A DNA stretch of 63,759 nucleotides from NCBI GenBank assembly GCA_964355005.1, contig CAYHBX010000001.1, forward strand, positions 1 through 63,759, in the 5' to 3' direction. Within the stretch, counting starts at the first letter, position 1; every line of letters starts with the position of its first letter. The translations under genes were made by a program, and so were the position numbers. Below, piece after piece: positions 1 to 60,075 of the stretch. The notes beneath the pieces are model-generated. The model ran no database searches. It saw nothing but the letters and a program-made list of their open reading frames with translations, and was not told the DNA's origin. This DNA comes from an uncultured Candidatus Saccharibacteria bacterium (GTDB taxonomy: Bacteria > Patescibacteriota > Minisyncoccia > UBA6257 > WO2-44-18).

Positions 1-327
1 ACCCTTCTTGAGGAAGGGCTCGGGCTTCAACTTGGAGACGTCGGTGATGCGGCGGGCGGGGCCGCGCTCAATGAGCTTCCAGCCGTCCTGCGCCTTGTCG
101 AACTTGAAGGGCGCGGGAGTGATAACCTTGCTCGTACTGACCTCGCCGATTCGGGCAATTTCCTGATCGATCTGGTCACAGAACCGCTGAAGGCCGGCGA
201 CCTGCTCGCCCACCTCGGAGCGCAACTTTTCCAGATTGCTCTTATGCGCTTGCTTGGCTCCGGACAGCCGGTTTTCCAGCTCCACGATCTTGGCCTCATC
301 ATCCTTAGACTTCTGTTCATCTCTCAC
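1..327 (-). CDS. hypothetical coiled-coil protein, N-terminal part only (runs off window start); GC-rich cassette gene
   Basis: GTG at 327-325 follows AGGAGG; the frame is open to base 1. Charged, heptad-like N-terminus. Promoter and leader are homologous to 63228-63337. Confidence 0.5.
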   Translation of the reverse strand, partial: MRDEQKSKDDEAKIVELENRLSGAKQAHKSNLEKLRSEVGEQVAGLQRFCDQIDQEIARIGEVSTSKVITPAPFKFDKAQDGWKLIERGPARRITDVSKLKPEPFLKKG

Positions 328-399
328 GGCTAGCCTCCTGAATTGGGTTGTTTTTACGCTCTTTTACCACACGGTAAAATGAGTTTTGGAACTGTTGGA

Positions 400-429
400 A
401 GCGTAGCATAATTGAGCCTATCTTGTCAA
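400..429 (-). promoter_or_regulatory. sigma70-type promoter for the 1-327 gene
   Basis: On the minus strand: TTGACA (429-424), 18 nt, TGCTACGCT (-10 at 405-400). Aligns with the promoter at 63228-63257. Confidence 0.55.
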
Positions 430-478
430 CCCCTCTTTAAAAACCCTAGAACTTTCAACTTTGAACTAAAACATCCGC

Positions 479-2870: not shown

Positions 2871-4670
2871 ATGTTTAAACTCGTATCCCATTTCACGCCT
2901 AAAGGAGATCAACTCAAAGCGATCGATGAACTGGTCGCCGGTTTGGAGTCCGGCAAACAGCACCAGACCCTTTTGGGCGTTACGGGTTCCGGAAAAACCT
3001 TTACAATGGCTTCGGTTATAGAAAAAGCCGGCCTGCCGACACTGATCATATCGCCCAACAAGATCCTGGCCGCCCAGCTTTATCAGGAATTTAAACAATT
3101 CTTCCCGAACAGCGCCGTCCACTATTTCGTTTCTTATTACGATTATTACCAACCCGAAGCGTATATTCCGCAGACTAAAACTTATATTCAAAAAGACGCC
3201 CGCATCAACGCCGAGATAGACAAATTGCGCCATTCCGCCATTCAAGCGGTGCTGGGAAGAAAAGACGCGATTGTTATCGCTTCGGTTTCTTGCATCTACG
3301 GCGTCGGCGATCCGAACGAATACCAAAATGCCCGCTTGGAACTAAAAATCGGACAGATCATTGATCCAAAAGACCTGACCCGTCATTTGAACCTTCTGCA
3401 ATACGAGAGAAATGCCGAAGCGCCGCTGTTGGGACAATTTTCCATCGGCAAAGAAAAAACCCGCGTCCACTTGGTTACCGGTGAAGTTGTTGAAATTATT
3501 TTTGAAAAAAGAAAAATTAAATCCATCTCCCGAATTGATCCCAAAACCCCATTGGCTAAACCCTATACCCTATCCACTGTATCCATCTACCCCGCCAAAT
3601 TCTGGGTTACCCCCCAGCATAAAATGAACCTGGCGCTCCGCAATATCAAAACCGAACTTGATGACCGAATAGAGCAACTGCAATCGGCCAATAAATTTGA
3701 GGCCGCGAACCGTCTGGAGAAAAAAACAAATTTTGACATTGAAATGCTGAAGAAGAAGGGATACGTGAACGGCGTAGAAAATTATTCCCGCCATTTGAGC
3801 TTCCGCCAGCCCGGCGAACCGCCAACAACGCTGATCGATTATTTCCCGAAACCATTCCTGTTATTTCTAGATGAATCACATATCGCGGTTCCGCAATTGA
3901 ACGCCATGCAAGAAAGCGATCGCCGCCGGAAGATGAACTTGATCAACTACGGTTTCCGTCTGCCATCAGCGCTGGACAACCGCCCGCTGACATTCGCCGA
4001 ATTCAACTCCAAGATCGGCCAATCTGTTTTCGTATCCGCCACCCCCGGACCATATGAAATGGAAAAAGGCGGCATCGTAGAACAGCTGGTCCGCCCGACC
4101 GGAATCTTGGACCCGGAGATCCAGATCCGCCCCGCGAAAAACCAAGTCCAACATCTGCTCGGCGAGATCCGGAACCGAATATCAAAAAATGAACGCGTGC
4201 TGGCTTTGACGCTGACCAAACGTTCCGCCGAGGACCTGACCGAATATCTTTTGGAGCAGGGAATTAAAACAAAATATCTCCACTCGGAAATCAAAACCCT
4301 GGAACGCCCAAAGGTTCTGCAGGCACTCCGCCGGGGAGATATAGATGTAGTGGTGGGAATTAATCTGCTACGCGAAGGACTAGACCTTCCGGAGGTCAGT
4401 TTGGTAGCGATCCTGGATGCCGACCGCGAAGGCTTCCTGCGTAATTACCGCGGTTTGATCCAGATGGCCGGCCGCGCCGCCCGCTCGATCAATGGAAAAG
4501 TTATTTTTTACGCCGACTTCCTGACAGATTCTATCAAGAAAACAATGCTGGAAACTCTACGCCGCCGGAAAGTCCAGCAAAAATTCAACAAAAAAATGGG
4601 CGTTCGCCCAACTGCCATAAACAAACCACTCACCGAAGAAATGTTCGCCGACTCCGCGAAAGAGGTCTAA
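2871..4670 (+). CDS. uvrB: excinuclease ABC subunit B (short form)
   Basis: GVTGSGKTFTMA Walker A and conserved UvrB blocks throughout. At 599 aa it lacks the C-terminal UVR tail. Confidence 0.95.
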   Translation: MFKLVSHFTPKGDQLKAIDELVAGLESGKQHQTLLGVTGSGKTFTMASVIEKAGLPTLIISPNKILAAQLYQEFKQFFPNSAVHYFVSYYDYYQPEAYIPQTKTYIQKDARINAEIDKLRHSAIQAVLGRKDAIVIASVSCIYGVGDPNEYQNARLELKIGQIIDPKDLTRHLNLLQYERNAEAPLLGQFSIGKEKTRVHLVTGEVVEIIFEKRKIKSISRIDPKTPLAKPYTLSTVSIYPAKFWVTPQHKMNLALRNIKTELDDRIEQLQSANKFEAANRLEKKTNFDIEMLKKKGYVNGVENYSRHLSFRQPGEPPTTLIDYFPKPFLLFLDESHIAVPQLNAMQESDRRRKMNLINYGFRLPSALDNRPLTFAEFNSKIGQSVFVSATPGPYEMEKGGIVEQLVRPTGILDPEIQIRPAKNQVQHLLGEIRNRISKNERVLALTLTKRSAEDLTEYLLEQGIKTKYLHSEIKTLERPKVLQALRRGDIDVVVGINLLREGLDLPEVSLVAILDADREGFLRNYRGLIQMAGRAARSINGKVIFYADFLTDSIKKTMLETLRRRKVQQKFNKKMGVRPTAINKPLTEEMFADSAKEV

Positions 4671-10315: not shown

Positions 10316-11218
10316 TTATTTTCCCAGCCGTTCAACCAAGCTCTTGAAGCCAAGAGATTGGAAGAATTTTTGCAAAACTTCTTTGTTGAGGGGTGACGCC
10401 TTCAATTCTTCCAGATCTTTTATTTCCATCGGGGCGTCGCGGCGCATTGTTGCCAGCCGCTTGGAAGCGAGCGCGATGTCTTTTTGGCCTTCCAGTTTTT
10501 TGGCGGCCGATTTCTGCGTGAGAATCGCGATATTTTCAAAAACTTCCTCCAAAGTTTTAAACTCTTTTAATAAATCGGCGGCGGTCTTCGGACCAATCCC
10601 CATGACTCCCGGAATGTTATCAGAAACGTCACCCACTAAACCTTTATAATCCGGAAGTTGGGCTGGTTTCAAACCATAACGTTCAATGACCGCTTTTTCG
10701 TCATAAATTTTGGTTTCGGTGATTCCGGTTTTGAAAATTTCCGCCACCACTTTTTCATTTTCTACCAACTGGAGATTATCCAAATCACCGGAAAGTATGA
10801 CGATTTTTAGACCGGTTTCTTTTTTATACCGTTCGGTAATGGTCGCGATAATGTCATCCGCCTCAAAGCCGGCGACGGACAAAGTTTTAATGCCAAATTT
10901 TTTAAAAACCTCCGGCATCAAAATGATCTGGCTGACCAATTCATTAGCGGTCGGCGGACGCTGGGCTTTATATTCTTTGTATTCCTGCTCGCGAAAAGTC
11001 GGCTCGGGCCGATCCAACGCGGCTACCGCGTAATCCGGAGGGACTCGTCCTGAGCCTGTCGAAGGATTCAAAATCTTCAGCAACACGCCGCAAAGTCCGT
11101 ACAGGGCATTTGTCGGCTGTCCCGCCGGTCCGGTGAATGGCGGCAAGGCGTGGAAAAACCGATGGATTAGCGCGCTGGCGTCAATAAGCAATAATACGCT
11201 CTGTTTCTTTTGCTCCAT
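10316..11218 (-). CDS. 5'-3' exonuclease (FEN domain of Pol I as a separate ORF)
   Basis: LLIDASALIHRFFHA, GDLDNLQL and GVMGIGPKTA motifs. TAA stop lies 2 nt before the ATG of 8967-10313. Confidence 0.9.
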   Translation of the reverse strand: MEQKKQSVLLLIDASALIHRFFHALPPFTGPAGQPTNALYGLCGVLLKILNPSTGSGRVPPDYAVAALDRPEPTFREQEYKEYKAQRPPTANELVSQIILMPEVFKKFGIKTLSVAGFEADDIIATITERYKKETGLKIVILSGDLDNLQLVENEKVVAEIFKTGITETKIYDEKAVIERYGLKPAQLPDYKGLVGDVSDNIPGVMGIGPKTAADLLKEFKTLEEVFENIAILTQKSAAKKLEGQKDIALASKRLATMRRDAPMEIKDLEELKASPLNKEVLQKFFQSLGFKSLVERLGK

Positions 11219-13598: not shown

Positions 13599-15272
13599 CT
13601 ACCAACGCAGAGGCCCCGTCACGCCCTCCACTTCATCAAAAGTCGTAATGCCGGATAAAGTTTTCAAAACTCCGTCCTGTTGCATAGTGACCATTCCTTG
13701 TTTGATGGCATAACGCTGGATCACCGCCTCCCCGGTCGCCGGAGAGATCATTTCCTCCAATCCTTCGTCTACCAGCAATAACTCCATTACCGCGATCCGG
13801 CCCCGATAACCGATGCCGGAGCATTTTACGCACCCTTTCGGTTTAAATAATTTAGGCTTCTCGTATTCTGCCCGATTCACCCTTTTGGGTAGCCCGGTGA
13901 AAAAATGTTTAAGCCTCGCCTCCAAATCGGCGGAAACTTTATCCTCAATTTTACAATTCTCGCACAATTTCCGGACCAACCTCTGCGCGATCACTAGACT
14001 CAAAGCAGGCCCCAAGCTGGCCGGTTTTACTCCTAAGTCCATAAATCTGGGTACCGCGCCGGCGGCGGAATTGGCATGTAAAGTTGAAAACACTAAGTGA
14101 CCGGTAAGGGCCGCTTGGATAGCAATATCGCCGGTTTCTTTGTCGCGGACCTCACCCACTAAAATAACATCAGGGTCTTGTCGCATAATGGAGCGCAATC
14201 CGGACGCGAAATCATATCCGGCATCCTGGTCAACTTGGGTCTGCTCAACGCCCTGCAGGTGATACTCGATCGGGTCTTCAATAGTGATCATTTTGATCCC
14301 GCCGGAAAGTTTACTTAAAAGAAAAGCGTACAGAGTGGTGGTTTTTCCGGAACCCGTCGGACCGGTGTTGAGGATCATGCCATTCGGCTGTTTCAATTGA
14401 TCCCGGATGATATCCAGATCGTCATTGCGCAAACCCAATTGTTCCAAGGTAAGCCGGATAGCCGCCGGGTCTAAGATACGCATCACGATGGTTTCGCCAT
14501 ATTCCGACGGGATAATAGAAACGCGCATTTCAATATCCGCTTCATCAAGCCGAATGGTGAACCGTCCGTCCTGCGGAACATTAGTAACGTTAAGTTTTAA
14601 ATTAGAAAGTAATTTGATCCGGGAAACAACCAATTTATAGATATTCAAAGGAAGACCGCTTAAAACTTCCTGCAGGGCGCCGTCAATCCTATATCGCAGG
14701 CGGGTTCCTTTTTCTTCGGCCTCAAAGTGAATATCAGAAACGCGGTTATTCAACGCTCCCGCTAGCACTACTTCCAAGATCTGCCCGGTCGGCAAAGTTT
14801 TAAAATCAAAATTAAGAACCGCTTTTTTGACTTTCTCCAGATCGGTCAATTGCTGACGCAATTCTTTCAAACGAGTTTCTTCAATATCAACTTTTCCAGT
14901 GATCCCCTCCACGCTAGAAACTATGAATTTATAAAATTCCCACACATGAACAAGCCCGCTAAAAGAAGCAATGAATATCTTTGCCTGCTTACCCTCGGAG
15001 GCAAGTCTTTTAATCAGCTCGTCCACGCCCTTCGCCCGTGGATCATAAATGGCCAGCGCTATTTCTTTTTCTTTTGATTGGAAGGGGGCAAGCCGGAGGC
15101 GGCGCGCTTCTTCCTCTTTTACGAACTTAAGAGACTCGATTTGAATCGGAGCGGTCGCCAAACTGAGGTAGGGGTAACCGGTCATTCCGGCTCTATTTTG
15201 AGCATCCCGTTCTTCAGCCTCCCGCCTTATTTTAACCAGTTGATCGTCTAAACTTTTAACCGCTTGTAGCAT
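13599..15272 (-). CDS. type II/IV secretion ATPase (GspE/PilB family)
   Basis: GPTGSGKTTT Walker A, Asp and His boxes, C-terminal CxxC pairs. Start moved to MLQAVKS because the longer ORF runs through the divergent promoter. Confidence 0.9.
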   Translation of the reverse strand: MLQAVKSLDDQLVKIRREAEERDAQNRAGMTGYPYLSLATAPIQIESLKFVKEEEARRLRLAPFQSKEKEIALAIYDPRAKGVDELIKRLASEGKQAKIFIASFSGLVHVWEFYKFIVSSVEGITGKVDIEETRLKELRQQLTDLEKVKKAVLNFDFKTLPTGQILEVVLAGALNNRVSDIHFEAEEKGTRLRYRIDGALQEVLSGLPLNIYKLVVSRIKLLSNLKLNVTNVPQDGRFTIRLDEADIEMRVSIIPSEYGETIVMRILDPAAIRLTLEQLGLRNDDLDIIRDQLKQPNGMILNTGPTGSGKTTTLYAFLLSKLSGGIKMITIEDPIEYHLQGVEQTQVDQDAGYDFASGLRSIMRQDPDVILVGEVRDKETGDIAIQAALTGHLVFSTLHANSAAGAVPRFMDLGVKPASLGPALSLVIAQRLVRKLCENCKIEDKVSADLEARLKHFFTGLPKRVNRAEYEKPKLFKPKGCVKCSGIGYRGRIAVMELLLVDEGLEEMISPATGEAVIQRYAIKQGMVTMQQDGVLKTLSGITTFDEVEGVTGPLRW

Positions 15273-15305
15273 TATTTTTATTCTAACACACCACTTAACC
15301 AGCCC

Positions 15306-15335
15306 TTGACAAAATAGGCTTAGCCGTGCTAGAAT
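15306..15335 (+). promoter_or_regulatory. near-consensus promoter
   Basis: TTGACA, 18 nt, TGCTAGAAT. Confidence 0.65.
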
Positions 15336-15392
15336 ACCCCAGTTAGAAGTTAGCCGCACTTTCACAAAAACCCCCAAACAAGGAGGTCAGAA

Positions 15393-15776
15393 ATGCGAAA
15401 ATTCCTGTGGATCCTGCTGTTGGTGCCCCTGCCTCTGTTGTCCGGCTGTTCTCTGACCGCCAAGATCGGCAATTGGTCGATCTGGTCGGCAACGGCAACC
15501 AACGTTACTGTTGTCAACAACACCGAAAATTTGTATTTCGATCTGATTCTGAATGGGAAAAAGGTGCGCCCGGACTTAATTCCGCCCGGTAGCCATGGAA
15601 CTTTCGGGCTTCGAAATTTTACCGATCAACACAAAGGGTACGGCTTGGTGATCAAAGCTTACGACGGCTCCGGCAATGTTGTCGGAGTGACAACCGAGGA
15701 ATTCACTCTGGGTTCGTACCAAGCAAGCAATCACACTCTGGTGCTGGACTCAACCGACTTCTCAAAAAGGAGGTGA
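15393..15776 (+). CDS. small lipoprotein (GC-rich cassette)
   Basis: Signal peptide with LLSGC lipobox; AAGGAGG SD. Confidence 0.65.
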   Translation: MRKFLWILLLVPLPLLSGCSLTAKIGNWSIWSATATNVTVVNNTENLYFDLILNGKKVRPDLIPPGSHGTFGLRNFTDQHKGYGLVIKAYDGSGNVVGVTTEEFTLGSYQASNHTLVLDSTDFSKRR

Positions 15777-15779
15777 GCT

Positions 15780-15971
15780 GTGTTACATGAAAACGGATGG
15801 GCGCTCGTCGTGAACCCCAAAAATTCCAGTCTTGTTTTCCGACTGGACCCCAATGCCCCGACGGACGCGAGAATCATCGAGGCCGCCGAGGCGATGAAAA
15901 AAGAGGGGCGCGACCAGTCAGAGATCGACCAGGAAATCGTCCGACTGATTCACGAGGCCTACCCCGGCTAA
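15780..15971 (+). CDS. small hypothetical protein
   Basis: GTG start 3 nt after the upstream stop, with AGGAGG upstream. Confidence 0.45.
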   Translation: MLHENGWALVVNPKNSSLVFRLDPNAPTDARIIEAAEAMKKEGRDQSEIDQEIVRLIHEAYPG

Positions 15972-16014
15972 CTGGGAGAAACCGAGAACCCGTAAGTAGC
16001 AAGTGGCCGGGGGG

Positions 16015-16065
16015 CCCCGCACCTAATTGGAGGTGACAAATTTCTCACCGCGCGTAGGTGCGGGG
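16015..16065. repeat. long-form CCCCGCACCTA...TAGGTGCGGGG two-stem hairpin (copy 1)
   Basis: 11-bp outer stem, internal loop, inner stem GGTGA/TCACC. Confidence 0.85.
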
Positions 16066-16097
16066 TAGACTCCACCGGCAGACGGGCGGGAGGGTGG

Positions 16098-16122
16098 CCC
16101 CGCACACTCAAAGTGTGCGGGG
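16098..16122. repeat. short CCCCGCAC hairpin inside the 5' fragment of an old tRNA-Leu
   Basis: ccccgcacac-tcaaa-gtgtgcgggg, preceded by GGGAGGG-TGG and followed by the D-loop-like TAAACTCCATCGGCAGAC. Confidence 0.8.
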
Positions 16123-16143
16123 TAAACTCCATCGGCAGACTTG

Positions 16144-16280
16144 CCCCGTCACTAAATTTGCTGCCGCCAGGATGGCGAAATCGGCAAACGCGCCGGGCTT
16201 AAAATCCGGTGGCCTAATAAGCCTTGTGGGTTCGACTCCTACTCCTGGCATAAGCCAGCACAGCAAATTTTAGTGCGGGG
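16144..16280. mobile_element. 137-bp TIR element carrying a complete tRNA-Leu
   Basis: 20-nt arms ccccgtcactaaatttgctg / cagcaaattttagtgcgggg flank the tRNA at 16166-16250. Confidence 0.6.
16166..16250 (+). tRNA. tRNA-Leu (anticodon TAA)
   Basis: Hand-folded cloverleaf: acceptor GCCAGGA/TCCTGGC, anticodon loop CTTAAAA, long variable arm, T-loop TTCGACT. Confidence 0.85.
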
Positions 16281-16341
16281 CGCACAGGATTTAAAATCCG
16301 GTGTCCCTAGGGACGTGTGGGTTCAACTCCCACCCCTTCCA
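16273..16341 (+). pseudogene. 3' portion of an interrupted tRNA-Leu (TAA); matching 5' portion at 16088-16143
   Basis: Anticodon arm CAGGA-TTTAAAA-TCCGG, variable arm, T-arm and acceptor strand CCCTTCC, which pairs with GGGAGGG at 16088-16094 (one G-T pair). Confidence 0.55.
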
Positions 16342-16343
16342 TC

Positions 16344-16458
16344 GGCCGAGTGGTCCCCGCACCTAATGTTGGGTGCGGGACAGGCTCCATTGGCAGGCGC
16401 GGCGGATTCAAAATCCGTTGAGCGAAAGCTCGTGTGGGTTCGACTCCCACCTCGGCCA
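16344..16458 (+). tRNA. tRNA-Leu (anticodon CAA) with a roughly 29-nt extra hairpin in the D region
   Basis: Acceptor GGCCGAG/CTCGGCC, anticodon loop TTCAAAA, variable arm and T-arm are intact. It is 115 nt instead of about 86 because of the hairpin at 16355-16379. Confidence 0.55.
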
Positions 16459-16517
16459 TGTTCTTCCGGGGAAAACCCCGGAAGATTTCCTTCAACGATC
16501 CTTTCGGGAGACAGAAG

Positions 16518-16940
16518 ATGGCAACGGAAACCGTACATGACACAGTCACGTTGGTCGGGAACTCTGAATTGGAAGTAGCGGGCAATGGAACCGGAGTAGG
16601 AACAAGACAGCTCTCCGGCACGATCAAGGAAATGATTGCGGATTTCATGCGAAGCGAAGTAGCGAAAAAAGATGGCTTCAGGATCCTCTCTATCGCCCAA
16701 AGTCAGTCATACAATCCCCGCAAGAACGTGGCCGACGTAACAATCACGATCGCTTTTTCCTTCTTCGGTGAGCAATCAGAGCGACCGAGTCAGCGATTCG
16801 ACCCGAAAAAGATTGAGGAGTCGTCAAAGTTCTCCTCGAGGGCACCCGCGGTTCGCCAGCCGGAAGTTCCGGTGGCTCACAGCGCAATGCCGGACCGCGC
16901 CTCGAGCGTCCCGCAGGTCCGGCCCGCAAATTCGCGGTAA
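16518..16940 (+). CDS. hypothetical protein (GC-rich cassette)
   Basis: ATG after GGGAGA. The longer upstream ORF overlaps the tRNA. Own terminator. Confidence 0.5.
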   Translation: MATETVHDTVTLVGNSELEVAGNGTGVGTRQLSGTIKEMIADFMRSEVAKKDGFRILSIAQSQSYNPRKNVADVTITIAFSFFGEQSERPSQRFDPKKIEESSKFSSRAPAVRQPEVPVAHSAMPDRASSVPQVRPANSR

Positions 16941-16948
16941 GCAGTACG

Positions 16949-16974
16949 CCGCCCCTAACCGGGGCGGTTTTTTT
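16949..16974 (+). terminator. intrinsic terminator
   Basis: ccgcccc-taac-cggggcgg plus T7. Confidence 0.8.
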
Positions 16975-17020
16975 GTTCCACTTTTCCACGCGAGTAACCG
17001 CGTGTTGAGAAAACTGCGAA

Positions 17021-17069
17021 CCCCGCACCTAGTTGGAGGTTAGGACTCTAACCTCTTATAGGTGCGGGG
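17021..17069. repeat. long-form CCCCGCACCTA hairpin (copy 2)
   Basis: Inner stem GGTTAG/CTAACC is compensatory relative to the other copies. Confidence 0.85.
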
Positions 17070-17128
17070 TGCTCTTGCTTCTAGATAAATTTCTTGCGGA
17101 TAACCTTAGAAATTTATAGAATCAAGGC

Positions 17129-17653
17129 ATGTCCGGGCACAACAAATGGTCGCAGATAAAAAATCGTAAAGGCGCCCAAGACGCCAAGAAAAGCCTATCT
17201 TTCTCCAAACTTTTAGCAGTGGTAGCTTTGCACGCGAAAAACGATCCAAGCCCGACAACCAACTTAAAACTCCGGACGGCCATAGACCGGGCCAGAGAAG
17301 GCAATGTGCCTTTGGAGAATATTGAACGCGCCATCAATAGGGCTTCGGAAGCTAAAGATTTGACCGAGGTTTTGATAGAAGCTTACGGACCGGAGGGTGT
17401 AGCGATTATTATTGAAGCGATTACCGACAACAGCAACCGCACAGTCGCCGAAATCCGACATCTTTTGGATGAAAGTGGGGCGAAAATGGCTAACCCGGGA
17501 AGTGTTTTGTGGTCTTTCGAAAAAACCCCCGCTGGGTGGCAAGCAAAATTCCCTCAACCGGTTTCGGAAGCGGGCAAACAAAAACTAACAGAACTCATCG
17601 CGATAATCGAAGAGCACAACGACGTGCAGCGCGTTATCACAAACGCAAACTAG
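17129..17653 (+). CDS. yebC: YebC/PmpR family protein (short)
   Basis: The MSGHNKWSQIKNRKG start is diagnostic. Confidence 0.85.
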   Translation: MSGHNKWSQIKNRKGAQDAKKSLSFSKLLAVVALHAKNDPSPTTNLKLRTAIDRAREGNVPLENIERAINRASEAKDLTEVLIEAYGPEGVAIIIEAITDNSNRTVAEIRHLLDESGAKMANPGSVLWSFEKTPAGWQAKFPQPVSEAGKQKLTELIAIIEEHNDVQRVITNAN

Positions 17654-44545: not shown

Positions 44546-44596
44546 CCCCGCACCTAGTTGGAGGTGAGAAATTTCTCACCTCTTATAGGTGCGGGG
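44546..44596. repeat. long-form CCCCGCACCTA hairpin (copy 3), acts as terminator of 44576-45390
   Basis: Inner stem GGTGAG/CTCACC. On the minus strand it is followed by T6, and the gene's stop codon lies inside the hairpin. Confidence 0.85.
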
Positions 44597-47957: not shown

Positions 47958-48770
47958 ATGAGCGAGAACACGGGCAAGCTGGTGGAAGTTCGGGATGTGC
48001 CGCGTACGGCGGCGGAGTTGAAGGGCGAGGGCAAGGACCTCGCGAAGTTCCCGACGACGCCGCATCTCTGGGCGTTGATCATGGAGAAGCACTGCAAGCA
48101 TCTCCATGGCAAGTTCGGGGAGATGGCTGCCGCGAAGGTCGAGAAGGACCCCGACGGTGAGCAGATCACCCGGGCGGAGGGCGAACCGGTCGTGCTGGCC
48201 GAGCTCGAAAAGAGCCGCGCCGACCACGACAGCAAGGTCGCTGCCGAGGCGGCCCGGCAGGCCATCATCGATCGGCGTCCGGAGGACATCGATCAGGTGA
48301 CCTGCGCCTGCGGGTACATCTACCAGCCCAAGACGTGGGTCGCCACGATCGAGGACCGGAAGACGGGTGCGCTGAAGGCGATCACTCGGAAGACCGATCG
48401 CGGCGAGGAAGCTCGCCGGAACGGCGAATTCCGGATCGACGGAAGGGACGTCCTTCCGACCTGCGCCAAGTGCGCGCAGGCGATCGAGAGGGCTTACATG
48501 AACGCCCTCTACGAGGCGGCGAAGTCCATCGAGAGCCAGGACGAGAAGAAGGCGTTCATCGCGGAAGGGAAGCGTCTCTTCCACAAGATGAACGGCCGGA
48601 CGTATGACGACGCCAACACCGTCGTCGAGGCGATCAAGCGGGTCGCCGAGGAGCGGGATGAGAAGGCGAAGGGTCGTTCCGCCGCGGCCGAGAAGATCAC
48701 CAACCAGCTGCTCGGGACTCTCCGTAAGAGCCCGGGGCGCGGGATGCGGGATCTGAACCGTCGAAAGTAG
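47958..48770 (+). CDS. hypothetical protein with CxC...CxxC cluster (GC-rich cassette)
   Basis: ATG after GAGGAGAG; 270 aa; no family recognised. Confidence 0.6.
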   Translation: MSENTGKLVEVRDVPRTAAELKGEGKDLAKFPTTPHLWALIMEKHCKHLHGKFGEMAAAKVEKDPDGEQITRAEGEPVVLAELEKSRADHDSKVAAEAARQAIIDRRPEDIDQVTCACGYIYQPKTWVATIEDRKTGALKAITRKTDRGEEARRNGEFRIDGRDVLPTCAKCAQAIERAYMNALYEAAKSIESQDEKKAFIAEGKRLFHKMNGRTYDDANTVVEAIKRVAEERDEKAKGRSAAAEKITNQLLGTLRKSPGRGMRDLNRRK

Positions 48771-48777
48771 TGATGTG

Positions 48778-48815
48778 CCGCCGAGAGGAATTTTCTCTCG
48801 GCGGTTTTATTTTTC
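48778..48815 (+). terminator. intrinsic terminator
   Basis: ccgccgagag / ctctcggcgg plus a T-rich tail. Confidence 0.7.
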
Positions 48816-48823
48816 AAGAGGAT

Positions 48824-48852
48824 TTGACAGAATTATTACTATCTGCTATACT
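48824..48852 (+). promoter_or_regulatory. near-consensus promoter
   Basis: TTGACA, 17 nt, TGCTATACT. Confidence 0.65.
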
Positions 48853-48929
48853 CTCGGCAGAGTTGTTTGAAAATAAAAACCCATCCCATACAAATTGTCT
48901 GGGATAATTTCTCTCGAAAGGAGAAAGCC

Positions 48930-49781
48930 ATGAGCGTTCGTGAAGAGCTGGATAAGCTGGCAACGACGAAGTGGACTGATCCTCGGACCAATGAGGAGAA
49001 GACGGGGCATGCCCGGGCGCGCTTCACCGCGGCCAAAGGCGCCATCGCCCAGGCGTACAATCTGGAAAGCCGGATTCGTGAGCTTTCTCACGAAGCCATC
49101 GTCGCTTTCAAAGCGGGTGATGTGGTCGGCGCTGATGAACGGAAGTTGGCGATGGACGAGCTGTGGGAAAAAATGGCCGCCCTGGATCTTCCTGGGGATG
49201 TTGCCTGGCAACATGATGCCCAGGCCGCCCAGGAAAGAGGGGAGCTCTACGGGGTGCTCTGGTTGCATTCCAAGATCTTCGGCGGTCCGGAATCGGTCAT
49301 GCCTTCGGCGGAAACTCTTCGTATGACCATTCCCAGCTGGCTGGCCGGTCTTGCCGACGCGGTCACGGAGACTTCCAAATTGCTTCGCAAGAAGCTGCGT
49401 GGGCGTGACGTGAGTCGCGCGGAGAGAATTTCTCTTCGGGAAAAGTTCATTTCGGTCGCCGAAGAGGTGCTGGACTTCCTCAATCAGTTCGAGGATGTTC
49501 TCCCGATGCTGGTCAACAACAGCCGCTACCGCGGGTTCATGAATACCTTCCGTGGTGTGTTGGGACGGGTGGAGCGCTGCATCGAGATTCACGAGGAGGC
49601 CCTGGTCGCCATGCTGGATCGGATGGCGGCAGATGCTCCGGCCGTGGCCGAACCCTGTTCGTGCAAGGAACCGGTGAAGGCCCTCGGCTCGGATGTGAGC
49701 GAGCCGCCGTATGATCCTCCGGATCCGGTGGTGGCCGAAACCAAGGACGATTTCGACCCTCCGCACATGGAGTTGGACTAG
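48930..49781 (+). CDS. hypothetical protein, weakly translin-like (tentative)
   Basis: Start at the ATG after AAAGGAGAAAG. The WLAGLADAVTETSKLLRK segment resembles the GLxDxxGEL motif of translin-family proteins. Confidence 0.55.
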   Translation: MSVREELDKLATTKWTDPRTNEEKTGHARARFTAAKGAIAQAYNLESRIRELSHEAIVAFKAGDVVGADERKLAMDELWEKMAALDLPGDVAWQHDAQAAQERGELYGVLWLHSKIFGGPESVMPSAETLRMTIPSWLAGLADAVTETSKLLRKKLRGRDVSRAERISLREKFISVAEEVLDFLNQFEDVLPMLVNNSRYRGFMNTFRGVLGRVERCIEIHEEALVAMLDRMAADAPAVAEPCSCKEPVKALGSDVSEPPYDPPDPVVAETKDDFDPPHMELD

Positions 49782-49793
49782 GAGAAACAGACA

Positions 49794-49824
49794 CCCCCGC
49801 GCAAGTTGCGCGGGGGATTTTTTT
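49794..49824 (+). terminator. intrinsic terminator
   Basis: cccccgcgc-aagt-tgcgcggggg plus T7. Confidence 0.8.
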
Positions 49825-49867
49825 CCAATTTTCTTAGCGAGTATTCGAGCGGCTTGAGAATTGCGAA

Positions 49868-49916
49868 CCCCGCACCTACGAGAGGTGAGGGCGCTCACCT
49901 CTAACTAGGTGCGGGG
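49868..49916. repeat. long-form CCCCGCACCTA hairpin (copy 4)
   Basis: Inner stem GGTGAG-ggcg-CTCACC, followed by the D-loop-like TAAAGGTTTGGCAGCC. Confidence 0.85.
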
Positions 49917-49959
49917 TAAAGGTTTGGCAGCCAATCGCTACGCTCTTGGGCCAAGCCCT

Positions 49960-50946
49960 TTATTTCGCAAAGGGGTTCCTGGCTCCTCGGATTTCAAAAT
50001 GCAGATGACAGCCCGTCGGGCCGTGAACGTTGCCGGTGTTGCCGATGTTGGCGATGACATCGCCCTGGAGAACATAATCCCCGACCGATACCAAGTTTTT
50101 CTGCGTGTGCGCGTATTTAGTCACCGAGCCATTCGGATGCTCTATCTCCACATAACCGCCATAACCGTCATTCCAACCTGATAACTTTTCACCAATGACC
50201 AACCCTTCGGCGGAAGCATAAATAGAAGTACCGCAGGCATTGGCTATATCAACGCCGTTATAATAATGTAGCTTTCCCCAGTTCCAGCCGGTAGTTGGCA
50301 AAATGAAATAACCGGGATAGTTAGGGAGGTCGGCGATGGAAGCGCTGGCAAAAGTCTTCTTCGGTTTTGCTCCGGGAATAACCAACGAACTTCCTATTTT
50401 CAGACCGCTGGCGGAAATTTTATTAAACTGGGTAATTTTTGAGGAAGTTACTCCGTAAAATTCTGCCACCGAATCAATCGTTTCCCCCTCTTCAACCTGA
50501 TGCAGAACACCGGACACCGGAAGAATAACTACCTCCTGCCCCGGGCGGACGGTGTTGCCTAAACTGGCATTAGCCCAAAAAATAGTATTTAGAGAAATTC
50601 CAAAATTAGCGGCGATCTTAGAAAGTGAGTCGCCCTTCTGAACTTTATAAACGAGCAGGCCGTCGCGAGTCGGCAAGATTGTGCTTAGTGGATTGCCGGC
50701 ATTTAGCACCGAGTCGCCTTCTACTACTATGAAGCCGGCGGTCGCGTCTTGGTCGTCTGCCATCTGGAAATTATCTTCAAAAACCTGGCCGGCATAAAAG
50801 GAGTCTTCCTCCGCTCCCGCGGCATTAACCAGGCTGGCCAAAAAAGGCTCGCTCGGACTGATTGGGACGCGGGCATTTTTCGCTGTCACGAGGAAGTGAA
50901 GCCCGATTCCCATAATAACCAAAACAACCGGTAGTACGGTTGTCAT
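49960..50946 (-). CDS. LysM-domain M23 family peptidase
   Basis: Two LysM-like segments (YKVQKGDSLSKIA) and the HLHFEIR motif. Confidence 0.85.
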   Translation of the reverse strand: MTTVLPVVLVIMGIGLHFLVTAKNARVPISPSEPFLASLVNAAGAEEDSFYAGQVFEDNFQMADDQDATAGFIVVEGDSVLNAGNPLSTILPTRDGLLVYKVQKGDSLSKIAANFGISLNTIFWANASLGNTVRPGQEVVILPVSGVLHQVEEGETIDSVAEFYGVTSSKITQFNKISASGLKIGSSLVIPGAKPKKTFASASIADLPNYPGYFILPTTGWNWGKLHYYNGVDIANACGTSIYASAEGLVIGEKLSGWNDGYGGYVEIEHPNGSVTKYAHTQKNLVSVGDYVLQGDVIANIGNTGNVHGPTGCHLHFEIRGARNPFAK

Positions 50947-57022: not shown

Positions 57023-57056
57023 CCCCGCACCGAAAGGTGCGGGGGTTTGTTTTTTT
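57023..57056 (+). terminator. CCCCGCACC-gaaa-GGTGCGGGG terminator
   Basis: 9-bp stem, GAAA loop, T-rich tail. Confidence 0.8.
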
Positions 57057-59971: not shown

Positions 59972-60075
59972 CCCCGCACATAAATCCATGACCACATCTG
60001 AAGAAAATAAAGCCAAAACAATTTCATTAGATTTCTTTGCAACCATCGGTCGTCTGGTTGGAATTATGTGCGGGG
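59972..60075. repeat. CCCCGCACATAA ... TTATGTGCGGGG inverted-repeat element
   Basis: 12-nt perfect arms, 104 nt overall, 24 nt upstream of the PMM start. Confidence 0.7.

Follow-up and report, generated by a model that had tools for sequence, protein, structure and literature searches.

To our knowledge, the transfer RNA (tRNA) genes of bacteria are normally interrupted only by group I introns, which lie in the anticodon loop. The Rickettsia palindromic elements are selfish palindromes that land in structural-RNA and other genes. Selfish palindromic elements are also found as the GC clusters of yeast mitochondria (PMC4478555), and repetitive hairpin-forming elements are found in the mitochondria of sponges (PMC2800124). 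Archaeal tRNA genes can have introns at non-canonical positions and can be split or permuted (PMC4090602, PMC3293823, PMC3978253), and experiments with the phage GIY-YIG nuclease SegB demonstrated that it cuts inside tRNA genes and that recombinational repair then gives rise to tandem duplication of tRNA-containing segments (PMC13096335). Here, we analyzed a tRNA-Leu locus on contig CAYHBX010000001.1 (63,759 nucleotides [nt]; this whole stretch is referred to as the window). It contains tRNA genes with palindromic inserts in the D-loop that are apparently unspliced, and one of the broken genes houses a replacement tRNA between the ends of a mobile element. On balance, we favor the reading that an ancestral tandem pair of tRNA-Leu genes was colonized by small palindromic mobile elements and partly rebuilt, by replacement rather than by splicing.

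The locus is made of three tRNA-Leu units, named A, B, and C, an inner tRNA-Leu gene nested in unit B, and a terminator-like hairpin (Table 1; loci and contigs from other assemblies carry L numbers). The four elements that a first-pass annotation of this DNA had described were all present at the positions it gave. In unit A, the acceptor strand GGCCGGG (16005-16011) is followed by GGG, a nested hairpin of 51 nt (16015-16065), the tail TAGACTCC, and the remainder of the D-loop and D-stem, ACCGGCAGAC; the unit stops after tRNA position ~25 and is a 5' piece only. Unit B is divided by an insert whose extent, set between GGCAGAC and GCAC of the orthologous sequence, is 141 nt with a 1-nt ambiguity. 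The first-pass annotation had correctly recognized the normal 85-nt tRNA-Leu(TAA) and the inverted arms of this insert, but its length of 137 nt is revised by the comparison with orthologues. The arms (16143-16163 and 16261-16281) are 76% complementary without gaps and pair at 20 of 21 positions when two 1-nt indels are allowed; they carry the core of the hairpin family described below, (G)CCCCG(T)CAC and GTGCGGGG(C), and fold into a long helix (21 bp) that encloses the inner tRNA. In unit C, the D-loop replacement comprises a hairpin (16355-16379) and the tail ACAGGCTCC. The predicted fold of this unit closes, as expected from the earlier description of a 115-nt tRNA-Leu(CAA) with a hairpin after the acceptor, and has a closed acceptor stem (GGCCGAG/CTCGGCC), a long hairpin at the place of the D-arm, and normal anticodon (CAA), variable, and T arms, with a minimum free energy of −60.6 kcal/mol (z = −4.4). 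The new hairpin is also predicted to base-pair with the 5' strand of the D-stem, GTC.

All inserts lie in the D-loop, with lengths of 32-33 nt in units B and C and 59 nt in unit A. At the hairpin junctions TGG pairs with CCA, leaving 0-1 nt on the 5' side but 6-7 nt on the 3' side, and the D-region motif occurs three times, against 0.45 expected. Since the tRNA-Leu pieces share a strand, the locus showed no internal promoter, and only one terminator ends it, a single transcript is probable. The likeness of the tail to a −10 promoter box, or to a copy of the T-loop or variable arm, was too weak to be retained.

Table 1. Coordinates of the features of the tRNA-Leu locus, of the hairpin family in the window, and of the GIY-YIG units on other contigs
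Feature	Coordinates	Strand	Basis or remark
Unit A, 5' stump of a tRNA-Leu gene	16005..16083	+	Sequence; acceptor and position as in Leu(UAA) of L011
Unit B, 5' part: acceptor GGGAGGG, TGG, hairpin 16098-16122, tail TAAACTCC, then ATCGGCAGAC	16088..16140	+	
Insert of 141 bp dividing unit B within the 3' strand of the D-stem	16141..16281	+	Boundaries by comparison with L005 and L011
Inner tRNA-Leu(UAA), canonical, 85 nt, apparent cargo of the insert	16166..16250	+	ARAGORN and Rfam tRNA model
Unit B, 3' part: last two D-stem bases, anticodon arm (TAA), variable arm, T arm, acceptor CCCTTCC, A73	16282..16341	+	
Unit C, tRNA-Leu(CAA), complete apart from D-loop GGA replaced by 33 nt (16356-16388)	16344..16458	+	
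Intrinsic-terminator-like hairpin ending the locus	16462..16485	+	Identical sequence after the plain tandem genes of L011
Family copy, 49 nt, nested hairpin, intergenic	17021..17069		Inside a ~95-nt insertion absent from L011 and L010
Family copy, 51 nt, intergenic	44546..44596		Closest match to the unit A hairpin
Family copy, 49 nt, intergenic	49868..49916		Upstream flank shared with the 17021 copy
Short hairpin with the same ends (CCCCGCACC GAAA GGTGCGGGG), then a T run; terminator-like	57023..57044		
Pair of family ends (CCCCGCACATAA / TTATGTGCGGGG) around 80 nt containing ATG	59972..60075		
GIY-YIG units of ~300 bp	L058:386-690; L121:1467-1772; L122:1470-1772; L125:~142-441		Further contigs L122-124, L125-127

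Only the inner gene passed both ARAGORN and the Rfam tRNA model RF00005 (56.7 bits against a threshold of 29). Native unit C was called by ARAGORN only as an 81-nt version of Leu(CAA) with a poor acceptor stem (16378-16458); in Rfam, the tRNA model stayed below its threshold, and the top match was tRNA-Sec, at 28.9 bits with 47 required. When ~28-35 nt after the acceptor were deleted in silico, 174 of 897 variants were called as canonical Leu(CAA) and used the true acceptor. Unit B was called as Leu(TAA), with the acceptor GGGAGGG/CCCTTCC, only when both insertions were deleted (74 of 160 variants), and deletion of the terminal inverted repeat (TIR) insert alone did not restore the ARAGORN call. 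These runs with and without the hairpin bear out the two-part tRNA-Leu(TAA) and the hairpin-bearing tRNA-Leu(CAA) that had been proposed. ARAGORN tolerates many deletions, and none of them rebuilds the ancestral D-loop: GGA is gone and a tail of 8-9 nt (TARACTCC / CAGGCTCC) has been added. By comparison with the L005 orthologue, the lost GGA covers the position that corresponds to A14. No second Leu(CAA) gene besides unit C was seen by ARAGORN within the 64-kb window.

The first-pass annotation had left room for the hairpin being an intervening sequence removed from the tRNA precursor, and several results leave this without support. Bulge-helix-bulge geometry (3-nt bulges flanking a 4-bp helix) is absent at the hairpin junctions, where no 3-4-3 arrangement was found, and this misfit speaks against an archaeal-type tRNA intron. 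Rfam matches at E ≤ 10 over 15950-16520 were limited to the inner tRNA and to weak tRNA-clan or chance matches, and included no ribozyme or intron family. A group I intron does not fit this result, the D-loop site, or the size of the inserts (32-33 and 59 nt, against a core of ~200 nt or more). The D-loop is not restored by removal of the hairpin, and hairpin-bearing copies are broken in five other lineages (see below). Extended helices of the kind expected of RNase III-type intervening sequences are present in the predicted folds of units B and C. Like the disrupted tRNA genes of archaea, this locus has D-region insertions, fragmented tRNA genes, and GC-rich helices where the break occurs; it differs in that it belongs to a bacterium, lacks a bulge-helix-bulge, is interrupted by DNA that is a dispersed repeat, and holds a tRNA gene inside the insert of unit B, and in that splicing is unsupported.

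Integrative elements that target tRNA genes were also considered as a model. They share with this locus the tRNA gene as a target, partial copies beside an intact gene, and function kept by the incoming DNA; here, however, there is no integrase, the remains are mostly 5' stumps rather than 3' attachment-site (att) repeats, and the 141-bp unit contains a whole tRNA gene. Duplication of an integrase-type att site was rejected because the leftovers are mostly from the wrong end of the gene, the spacers measure 4-46 nt, and no integrase lies between the pieces.

The orthologous loci of relatives were compared, as the first-pass annotation had advised, at nine genome places obtained from seven look-ups of YebC homologues at 72-84% identity. 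The gene order RuvB-PilB-small open reading frames (ORFs)-[tRNA-Leu]-ORF-YebC-RuvC-PBP (penicillin-binding protein) is conserved between the window and these relatives. Plain tandem Leu(UAA) and Leu(CAA) genes, 2-13 nt apart, occupy the locus in L005, L008, L009, L011, L068, L069, L071, and L072; L010 has the tandem pair too, but its contig begins inside the UAA gene, of which only the 3' part is visible. CCCCGCAC sites were absent across the nine loci. L011 additionally has the upstream small ORF of the window and the identical terminator. Since relatives with the same gene order have plain tandem genes without the hairpin, the state in the window is derived; as judged from these orthologues, the ancestral locus was a tandem tRNA-Leu(UAA)-tRNA-Leu(CAA) pair on a chromosome of the Candidate Phyla Radiation (CPR). 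L003 and L004 have one Leu(UAA) gene and no CAA gene there and L006 retains only a 3' remnant, which shows that the locus is labile and that loss of a separate CAA gene can occur.

Set against these orthologues, units B and C have the D-loop GGA swapped for 32-33 nt, consisting of the hairpin and the tail TAAACTCC or ACAGGCTCC. Unit C with the ancestral GGA restored is identical to the Leu(CAA) of L005 at 82 of 85 positions, and unit B without its insertions is identical to the Leu(UAA) of L005 at 74 of 84 positions, with an identical variable arm. Identity between the inner tRNA and the Leu(UAA) genes of the relatives does not exceed 78% (61-66 of 85-87 positions), and the inner tRNA is therefore not a local duplicate. 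The acceptor GGCCGGG and the position of unit A match the Leu(UAA) gene of L011, which identifies it as the stump of a resident Leu(UAA) gene. Unit A is thus present as it had been described, but the pairing of its acceptor strand with the 3' strand of the CAA tRNA, to which attention had been drawn, is better explained as a leftover of this resident gene.

The hairpins of the locus are not confined to it. Family ends of the type CCCCGCAC...GTGCGGGG amount to 17 half-sites on both strands of the window, against 1.88 expected, and none of 100 shuffles reached 17. The unit A hairpin is ~86% identical, by manual count, to the copy at 44546-44596. The copies at 17021 and 49868 have 17 nt in common upstream of the hairpin (TTGAGAA..TGCGAA; stretches 16995-17071 and 49840-49916), and the repeated unit may therefore exceed the hairpin. 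At the most downstream pair of ends (Table 1), the right end appears within the first codons of the downstream ORF. The same ends and core recur at the intergenic copies, at the 17021 insertion, and in the arms of the insert, from which it follows that the hairpins are, by their sequence, members of a dispersed, lineage-specific repeat family. The earlier proposal that hairpins invaded tRNA genes and that a TIR element carrying a tRNA rescued the lost function is supported as far as the invasion is concerned, given the plain orthologues, the dispersed family that is absent in relatives, the family-type ends of the insert, and the sole canonical gene being the nested one; we infer the rescue from this arrangement.

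The same architecture was found in other metagenomes. A scan of 241 million contigs was made with a single pattern (3' hairpin arm, tail, and D-loop remainder, without acceptor strand, TGG, or neighboring tRNA) and returned 31 matches, mostly chance occurrences in GC-rich coding DNA, together with five tRNA-Leu cases (L081, L100, L087, L097, and L103). In these five, a Leu acceptor strand, TGG, a hairpin, and (T/C/G)AAACTCCAYTGGCAGAC lie upstream of an intact tRNA-Leu, which begins 6-46 nt downstream of a stump that stops soon after GGCAGAC. The contigs span 33-55% GC, and sequence conservation among the stumps extends to both the tail and the hairpin base YCCCGC/GCGGGR. L097 has identical CCCCGCACC/GGTGCGGGG arms and is fully nested: its outer 5' strand CCGCCG pairs with the outer 3' piece (...CGGCGGCACCA), an imperfect helix of ~15 bp surrounds the inner gene, and an additional hairpin lies in the outer T-loop. 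In L103, two serial stumps precede the intact gene, as units A and B and the inner gene do in the window. A single-event model, in which an element enters the D-loop with a new 5' tRNA part that restores the gene, was rejected because the outer 5' and 3' acceptor strands pair with each other, rather than with the inner gene, in both L097 and unit B. The recurrence of the architecture in other metagenomes is thus established, like the anatomy of the locus itself, at the level of sequence.

L081 also has a 3' fragment with an insert in the T-loop. Such 3' tRNA-Leu fragments, with 19-37 nt inserted in or beside the T-loop, were seen at L006:3180-3245, L081:~10855-10910, and L097:~4000-4050, and the L006 fragment occupies the corresponding chromosomal locus of an organism closely related to that of the window.

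The adjacent intact genes all differ from GGCAGAC (GGTAGAC and GCTAGAC; GGCAAAC in the window), which could mean target immunity. A phage origin was rejected: BLAST of 15000-17500 against phage genomes gave generic tRNA similarity only, exact scans of viral contigs gave nothing for the inner tRNA and only chance matches for the tail motif, and the consensus stump had no relevant match in plasmids or phages.

A second scan, covering one genome per species with the single pattern CCCCGCACCTA-N20-40-TAGGTGCGGGG, gave 56 loci (L012-L067) from many phyla that share the 11-bp ends CCCCGCACCTA/TAGGTGCGGGG. More than half of these (35 of 56) come from one metagenome-assembled genome (MAG) of Acidobacteria (JACQTF01), in which direct TGA, TCA, or CTGG repeats flank most of them; these copies are often at stop codons and look like a recent burst. 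Another Hainich Patescibacteria MAG accounts for three, with inner sequences that resemble those of the window. Six matches are a hairpin of RNase P RNA, either P12 (L027:2575-2972, L017, L050, and L055) or P3 (L047:540-951 and L039). Some of these may be due to chance, since the Rfam consensus stems are already CCCC.../...GGGG, and this weakens RNase P RNA as a candidate hot spot for the hairpins; one Victivallaceae genome stays persuasive, its P12 arms having 14 nt in common with its own dispersed copies (L020, L029, and L038). L050 and L055 have near-identical flanks under different taxonomic labels, which may be a binning error.

On a Harrisonbacteria contig, L058, a family member of 305 bp has an 84-amino-acid GIY-YIG gene between perfect 19-bp inverted ends and TCAA flanks; the 19 bp is the extent by eye, the computed search for inverted repeats having an upper limit of 16 bp. 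In all four homologues examined, the GIY-YIG gene lies between perfect inverted repeats that begin with (C/T)CCCGCACC and extend over at least 16 bp, and the hairpin ends CCCCGCACC/GGTGCGGGG are common to the units of L058, L121, L122, and L125. The gene is the sole ORF of the ~300-bp unit. Its product of ~85 amino acids contains the GIY-YIG domain (Pfam PF01541, E = 3e-18) and is of the small UPF0213 type, with 1ZG2 as the nearest solved structure. Short direct repeats (TCAA, TTGA, TGA, or TCA) lie beside the copies in L058, L121 (TTGA on both sides), L015, and most of the Acidobacteria MAG copies; the copies of the window have none. Since the examined GIY-YIG homologues sit between the same ends, the hairpins of the window look like derivatives without an ORF, and the unit that encloses the inner tRNA likewise looks, from its ends, like a derivative of the family with a tRNA gene as cargo. 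The GIY-YIG-bearing relatives are thereby identified by the ends that they share with these hairpins.

GIY-YIG genes are also found in or beside tRNA genes. At L097:4795-5211, a tRNA-Met(CAT) is directly followed by a GIY-YIG ORF that runs into a 3' fragment of this tRNA and stops within the anticodon loop of the fragment; the fragment has two extra hairpins, and the 16-nt repeat CCCACCCCTGGTACCA is present at both ends. This gene is 0.8 kb from the nested tRNA-Leu locus of L097. At L036:460-858 (Hainich Patescibacteria MAG H41-bin011_1), a GIY-YIG ORF lies ~100 nt downstream of a tRNA-Trp, with a GC-rich palindromic stretch between them. GIY-YIG proteins were among the genes apparently passed to other bacteria in a study of subsurface Patescibacteria (PMC12455944). 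Together with the same tRNA-Leu insertion site across lineages, these genes are circumstantial evidence for SegB-like homing, the GIY-YIG catalytic domain being present in related loci only. The adjacency of a GIY-YIG nuclease gene to tRNA genes is shared with SegB of phages T4 and T6 (PMC13096335). SegB, however, is a larger phage protein without inverted-repeat ends, whereas the proteins described here are of the UPF0213 type, have ~85 amino acids, and are encoded in ~300-bp TIR units of cellular genomes, where their cleavage activity is putative.

These features place the family near miniature inverted-repeat transposable elements (MITEs) and repetitive extragenic palindromic (REP) sequences, with which it has in common TIRs, many copies, a preference for intergenic sites, ORF-less forms of an ORF-bearing element, and short direct repeats in other genomes. 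Its TIRs are shared with an ORF-bearing element and its copies are dispersed and polymorphic, as is typical of MITEs. In contrast to MITEs, the partner encodes a GIY-YIG nuclease and no recognized transposase, and the copies of the window are without consistent target duplication; in contrast to REP families, the ends are CCCCGCAC, without the GTAG or CGTC tag (REP tags, PMC3733652); no genome-wide search aimed at a Y1 transposase (RAYT) gene was made. With the palindromic elements of Rickettsia, the GC clusters, and the sponge hairpins, the family shares its short, GC-rich, dispersed, and lineage-specific hairpins, their presence/absence polymorphism, and copies in structured-RNA genes. It differs from these selfish palindromes in having a form in which the same ends enclose a GIY-YIG nuclease ORF, in being found in free-living or episymbiotic bacteria of many phyla, in one copy with a tRNA as cargo, and in the nested replacements that accompany the invaded tRNA genes.

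In the reading that we favor, family members would have invaded the tandem genes, with a hairpin and a tail of 8-9 nt taking the place of three D-loop nucleotides in three gene copies. Copy A would then have been reduced to a 5' stump, copy B would have been split again by a 141-bp member carrying a foreign tRNA-Leu(UAA), and copy C would have been left otherwise intact. The GIY-YIG protein, as the sole candidate, may mobilize the elements, and repeated breakage followed by repair or replacement may account for the serial order of A, B, and the inner gene. The nested gene would be released by the usual end-processing enzymes and presumably decodes UUA/UUG, and the 21-bp helix around it may act as a cleavage stalk. 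Units B and C are probably not functional tRNAs: hairpin-bearing copies are always broken in five other lineages, the GGA/A14 position is lost, and the 5' strand of the D-stem is sequestered.

Several observations weigh against this reading. The GIY-YIG gene is absent from the 64-kb window, the copies there have no consistent target-site duplication, and its dispersed copies lack the tail (TARACTCC). The conservation of this tail over genomes as different in GC content as those of the five metagenome contigs is unexplained by simple transposon insertion. In the related contigs L081 and L100, 36 nt of the stump are unchanged while the flanks and upstream sequence are only 84% identical, which hints at constraint, at a leader function, or at continuing gene conversion. 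The full CCCCGCACC end is missing from four of the five metagenome stumps, whose hairpins have the shorter form YCCCGC(C)/(G)GCGGGR; these are linked to the GIY-YIG family through the shared core. The missing GGCAGAC in the intact genes is in part ascertainment, because the pattern demanded GGCAGRC in the stump. Finally, outside its insertion, unit C differs from the L005 orthologue at 3 of 85 positions, two of which are changes from Watson-Crick to G-U pairs; it is without visible decay and could still work.

The conserved stump raises the question of whether, instead of being a scar or a mobile element, the 5' piece with its hairpin (acceptor-like strand-UGG-hairpin-UAAACUCCAYUGGCAGAC) serves tRNA-Leu genes as a leader or cis-regulatory RNA that would act on how the tRNA downstream is transcribed, processed, or folded. 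Such a role would suit its place, which in five unrelated metagenome contigs is directly before an intact tRNA-Leu, four of these contigs having promoter-like sequences upstream of the stump, as well as the sequence conservation of the tail and hairpin base and the 36 unchanged nt of L081 and L100 against a flank divergence of 16%. We nevertheless regard a leader RNA as unlikely, for the motif is absent in the nine closest relatives with plain genes, sits like an insertion, in both the window and L097, inside tRNA genes that are split or complete apart from it, matches no Rfam family, is represented by only five instances among 241 million contigs, and has a decaying hairpin 5' arm in L081 and L100. 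An account in which tandem tRNA genes simply duplicated locally, underwent gene conversion, and decayed, with one chance hairpin insertion copied among paralogues and neither targeting nor a nuclease involved, comes just behind it and is quite unlikely. Gene conversion would indeed give units A, B, and C one insertion at one D-loop position, palindromes promote slippage and unequal recombination, and L006 is an independent decay of the same locus. The same insertion, position, and tail in distant lineages are not expected from local events, nor are the serial stumps seen again in L103 or the foreign inner gene, which stays at or below 78% identity to the UAA gene of any relative and has family-type inverted ends.

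Slightly less credible again is a hairpin that acts as an intervening sequence, trimmed away, for example, by RNase III in the manner of rRNA intervening sequences, or that is tolerated as an additional arm protruding from the D-loop, so that unit C, and possibly unit B as a two-piece molecule, would still be a working tRNA-Leu. The acceptor, anticodon, variable, and T arms of unit C are perfect and its sequence is close to that of its orthologue (82 of 85), no further Leu(CAA) gene was seen in the window, and a 21-bp helix lies exactly at the break of unit B. Unspliced insertions in rRNA genes are a feature of CPR bacteria. The junction geometry and the Rfam results given above nevertheless disagree with this explanation, as do the tail and the missing GGA (A14 position) that remain after hairpin removal, the D-stem 5' strand sequestered by the new hairpin, and the five other lineages in which the hairpin copy is always broken beside an intact one. 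Moreover, Leu(CAA) appears dispensable when UAA is present, as L003 and L004 have no CAA gene at the locus. A chimeric or mis-joined contig over the repeated hairpins is very improbable. Assemblies do break at such repeats, and L001, assembled independently from a different sample of this site, begins inside the inner tRNA, so that its coverage excludes unit A and the 5' part of unit B; it is, however, identical across 16241-16540, which takes in the 3' part of unit B, unit C, and the terminator, both flanks are collinear with relatives, and unrelated assemblies show the same architecture.

A wider extension of the favored reading, possible but tentative, is that the elements form an undescribed class of very small selfish elements: a ~300-bp unit with a GIY-YIG nuclease of ~85 amino acids between CCCCGCACC ends, together with hairpin-only and cargo derivatives, which would repeatedly strike tRNA-Leu D-loop DNA across phyla, the struck locus being rebuilt by the nesting of new copies into "Russian-doll" loci. 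Each strike would kill the gene, the insert being unspliced, and a new tRNA-Leu would be nested inside it, sometimes between the ends of the element; the serial loci would record an arms race in which a tRNA-targeting element is pitted against an essential gene. The literature searched, of which coverage was incomplete so that novelty is not proven, contained no description of the hairpin sequence, of hairpin-bearing bacterial tRNA genes, or of GIY-YIG units with inverted ends, and there is a realistic chance that the finding points to an undescribed class of mobile element. What would be new here is the minimal GIY-YIG partner unit, the tRNA cargo, the replacement genes nested in broken ones, and the same D-loop site in distant lineages. 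Small GIY-YIG proteins of the UPF0213 family are common in ultra-small bacteria. If the link to GIY-YIG is true, the unit would be a minimal mobile element whose sole protein is a nuclease of ~85 amino acids, part of this large family would gain a function, and the locus would show a streamlined genome surviving strikes on essential RNA genes.

Genes of this kind also affect annotation. Finders of tRNA genes miss or mis-call them and gene callers run spurious ORFs through them, which distorts the tRNA inventories of uncultured bacteria. ORF finders and public gene calls run ORFs over tRNA-Leu genes both in the window (16273-16940; for example, a call of 168 amino acids from GTG 16434) and in L003 (3422-3925). 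The likely start of the ORF that overlaps the locus is the ATG at 16520, past the terminator and a ribosome-binding site.

The neighbors of the locus in the window (RuvB, a PilB-type ATPase, YebC, RuvC, and a class A PBP) mark it as a piece of a Patescibacteria (CPR) chromosome. The nearest YebC homologues with a lineage name are from Harrisonbacteria and Patescibacteria, two nearer ones being labelled only "bacterium," and an identical YebC gene is present on contigs from Hainich groundwater samples, as well as on contigs of ENA ERZ1292616 and ERZ1292617. The GC content rises to 0.60 at 48001-50000, from ~0.47 for the whole window, in a stretch that matches no Rfam family.

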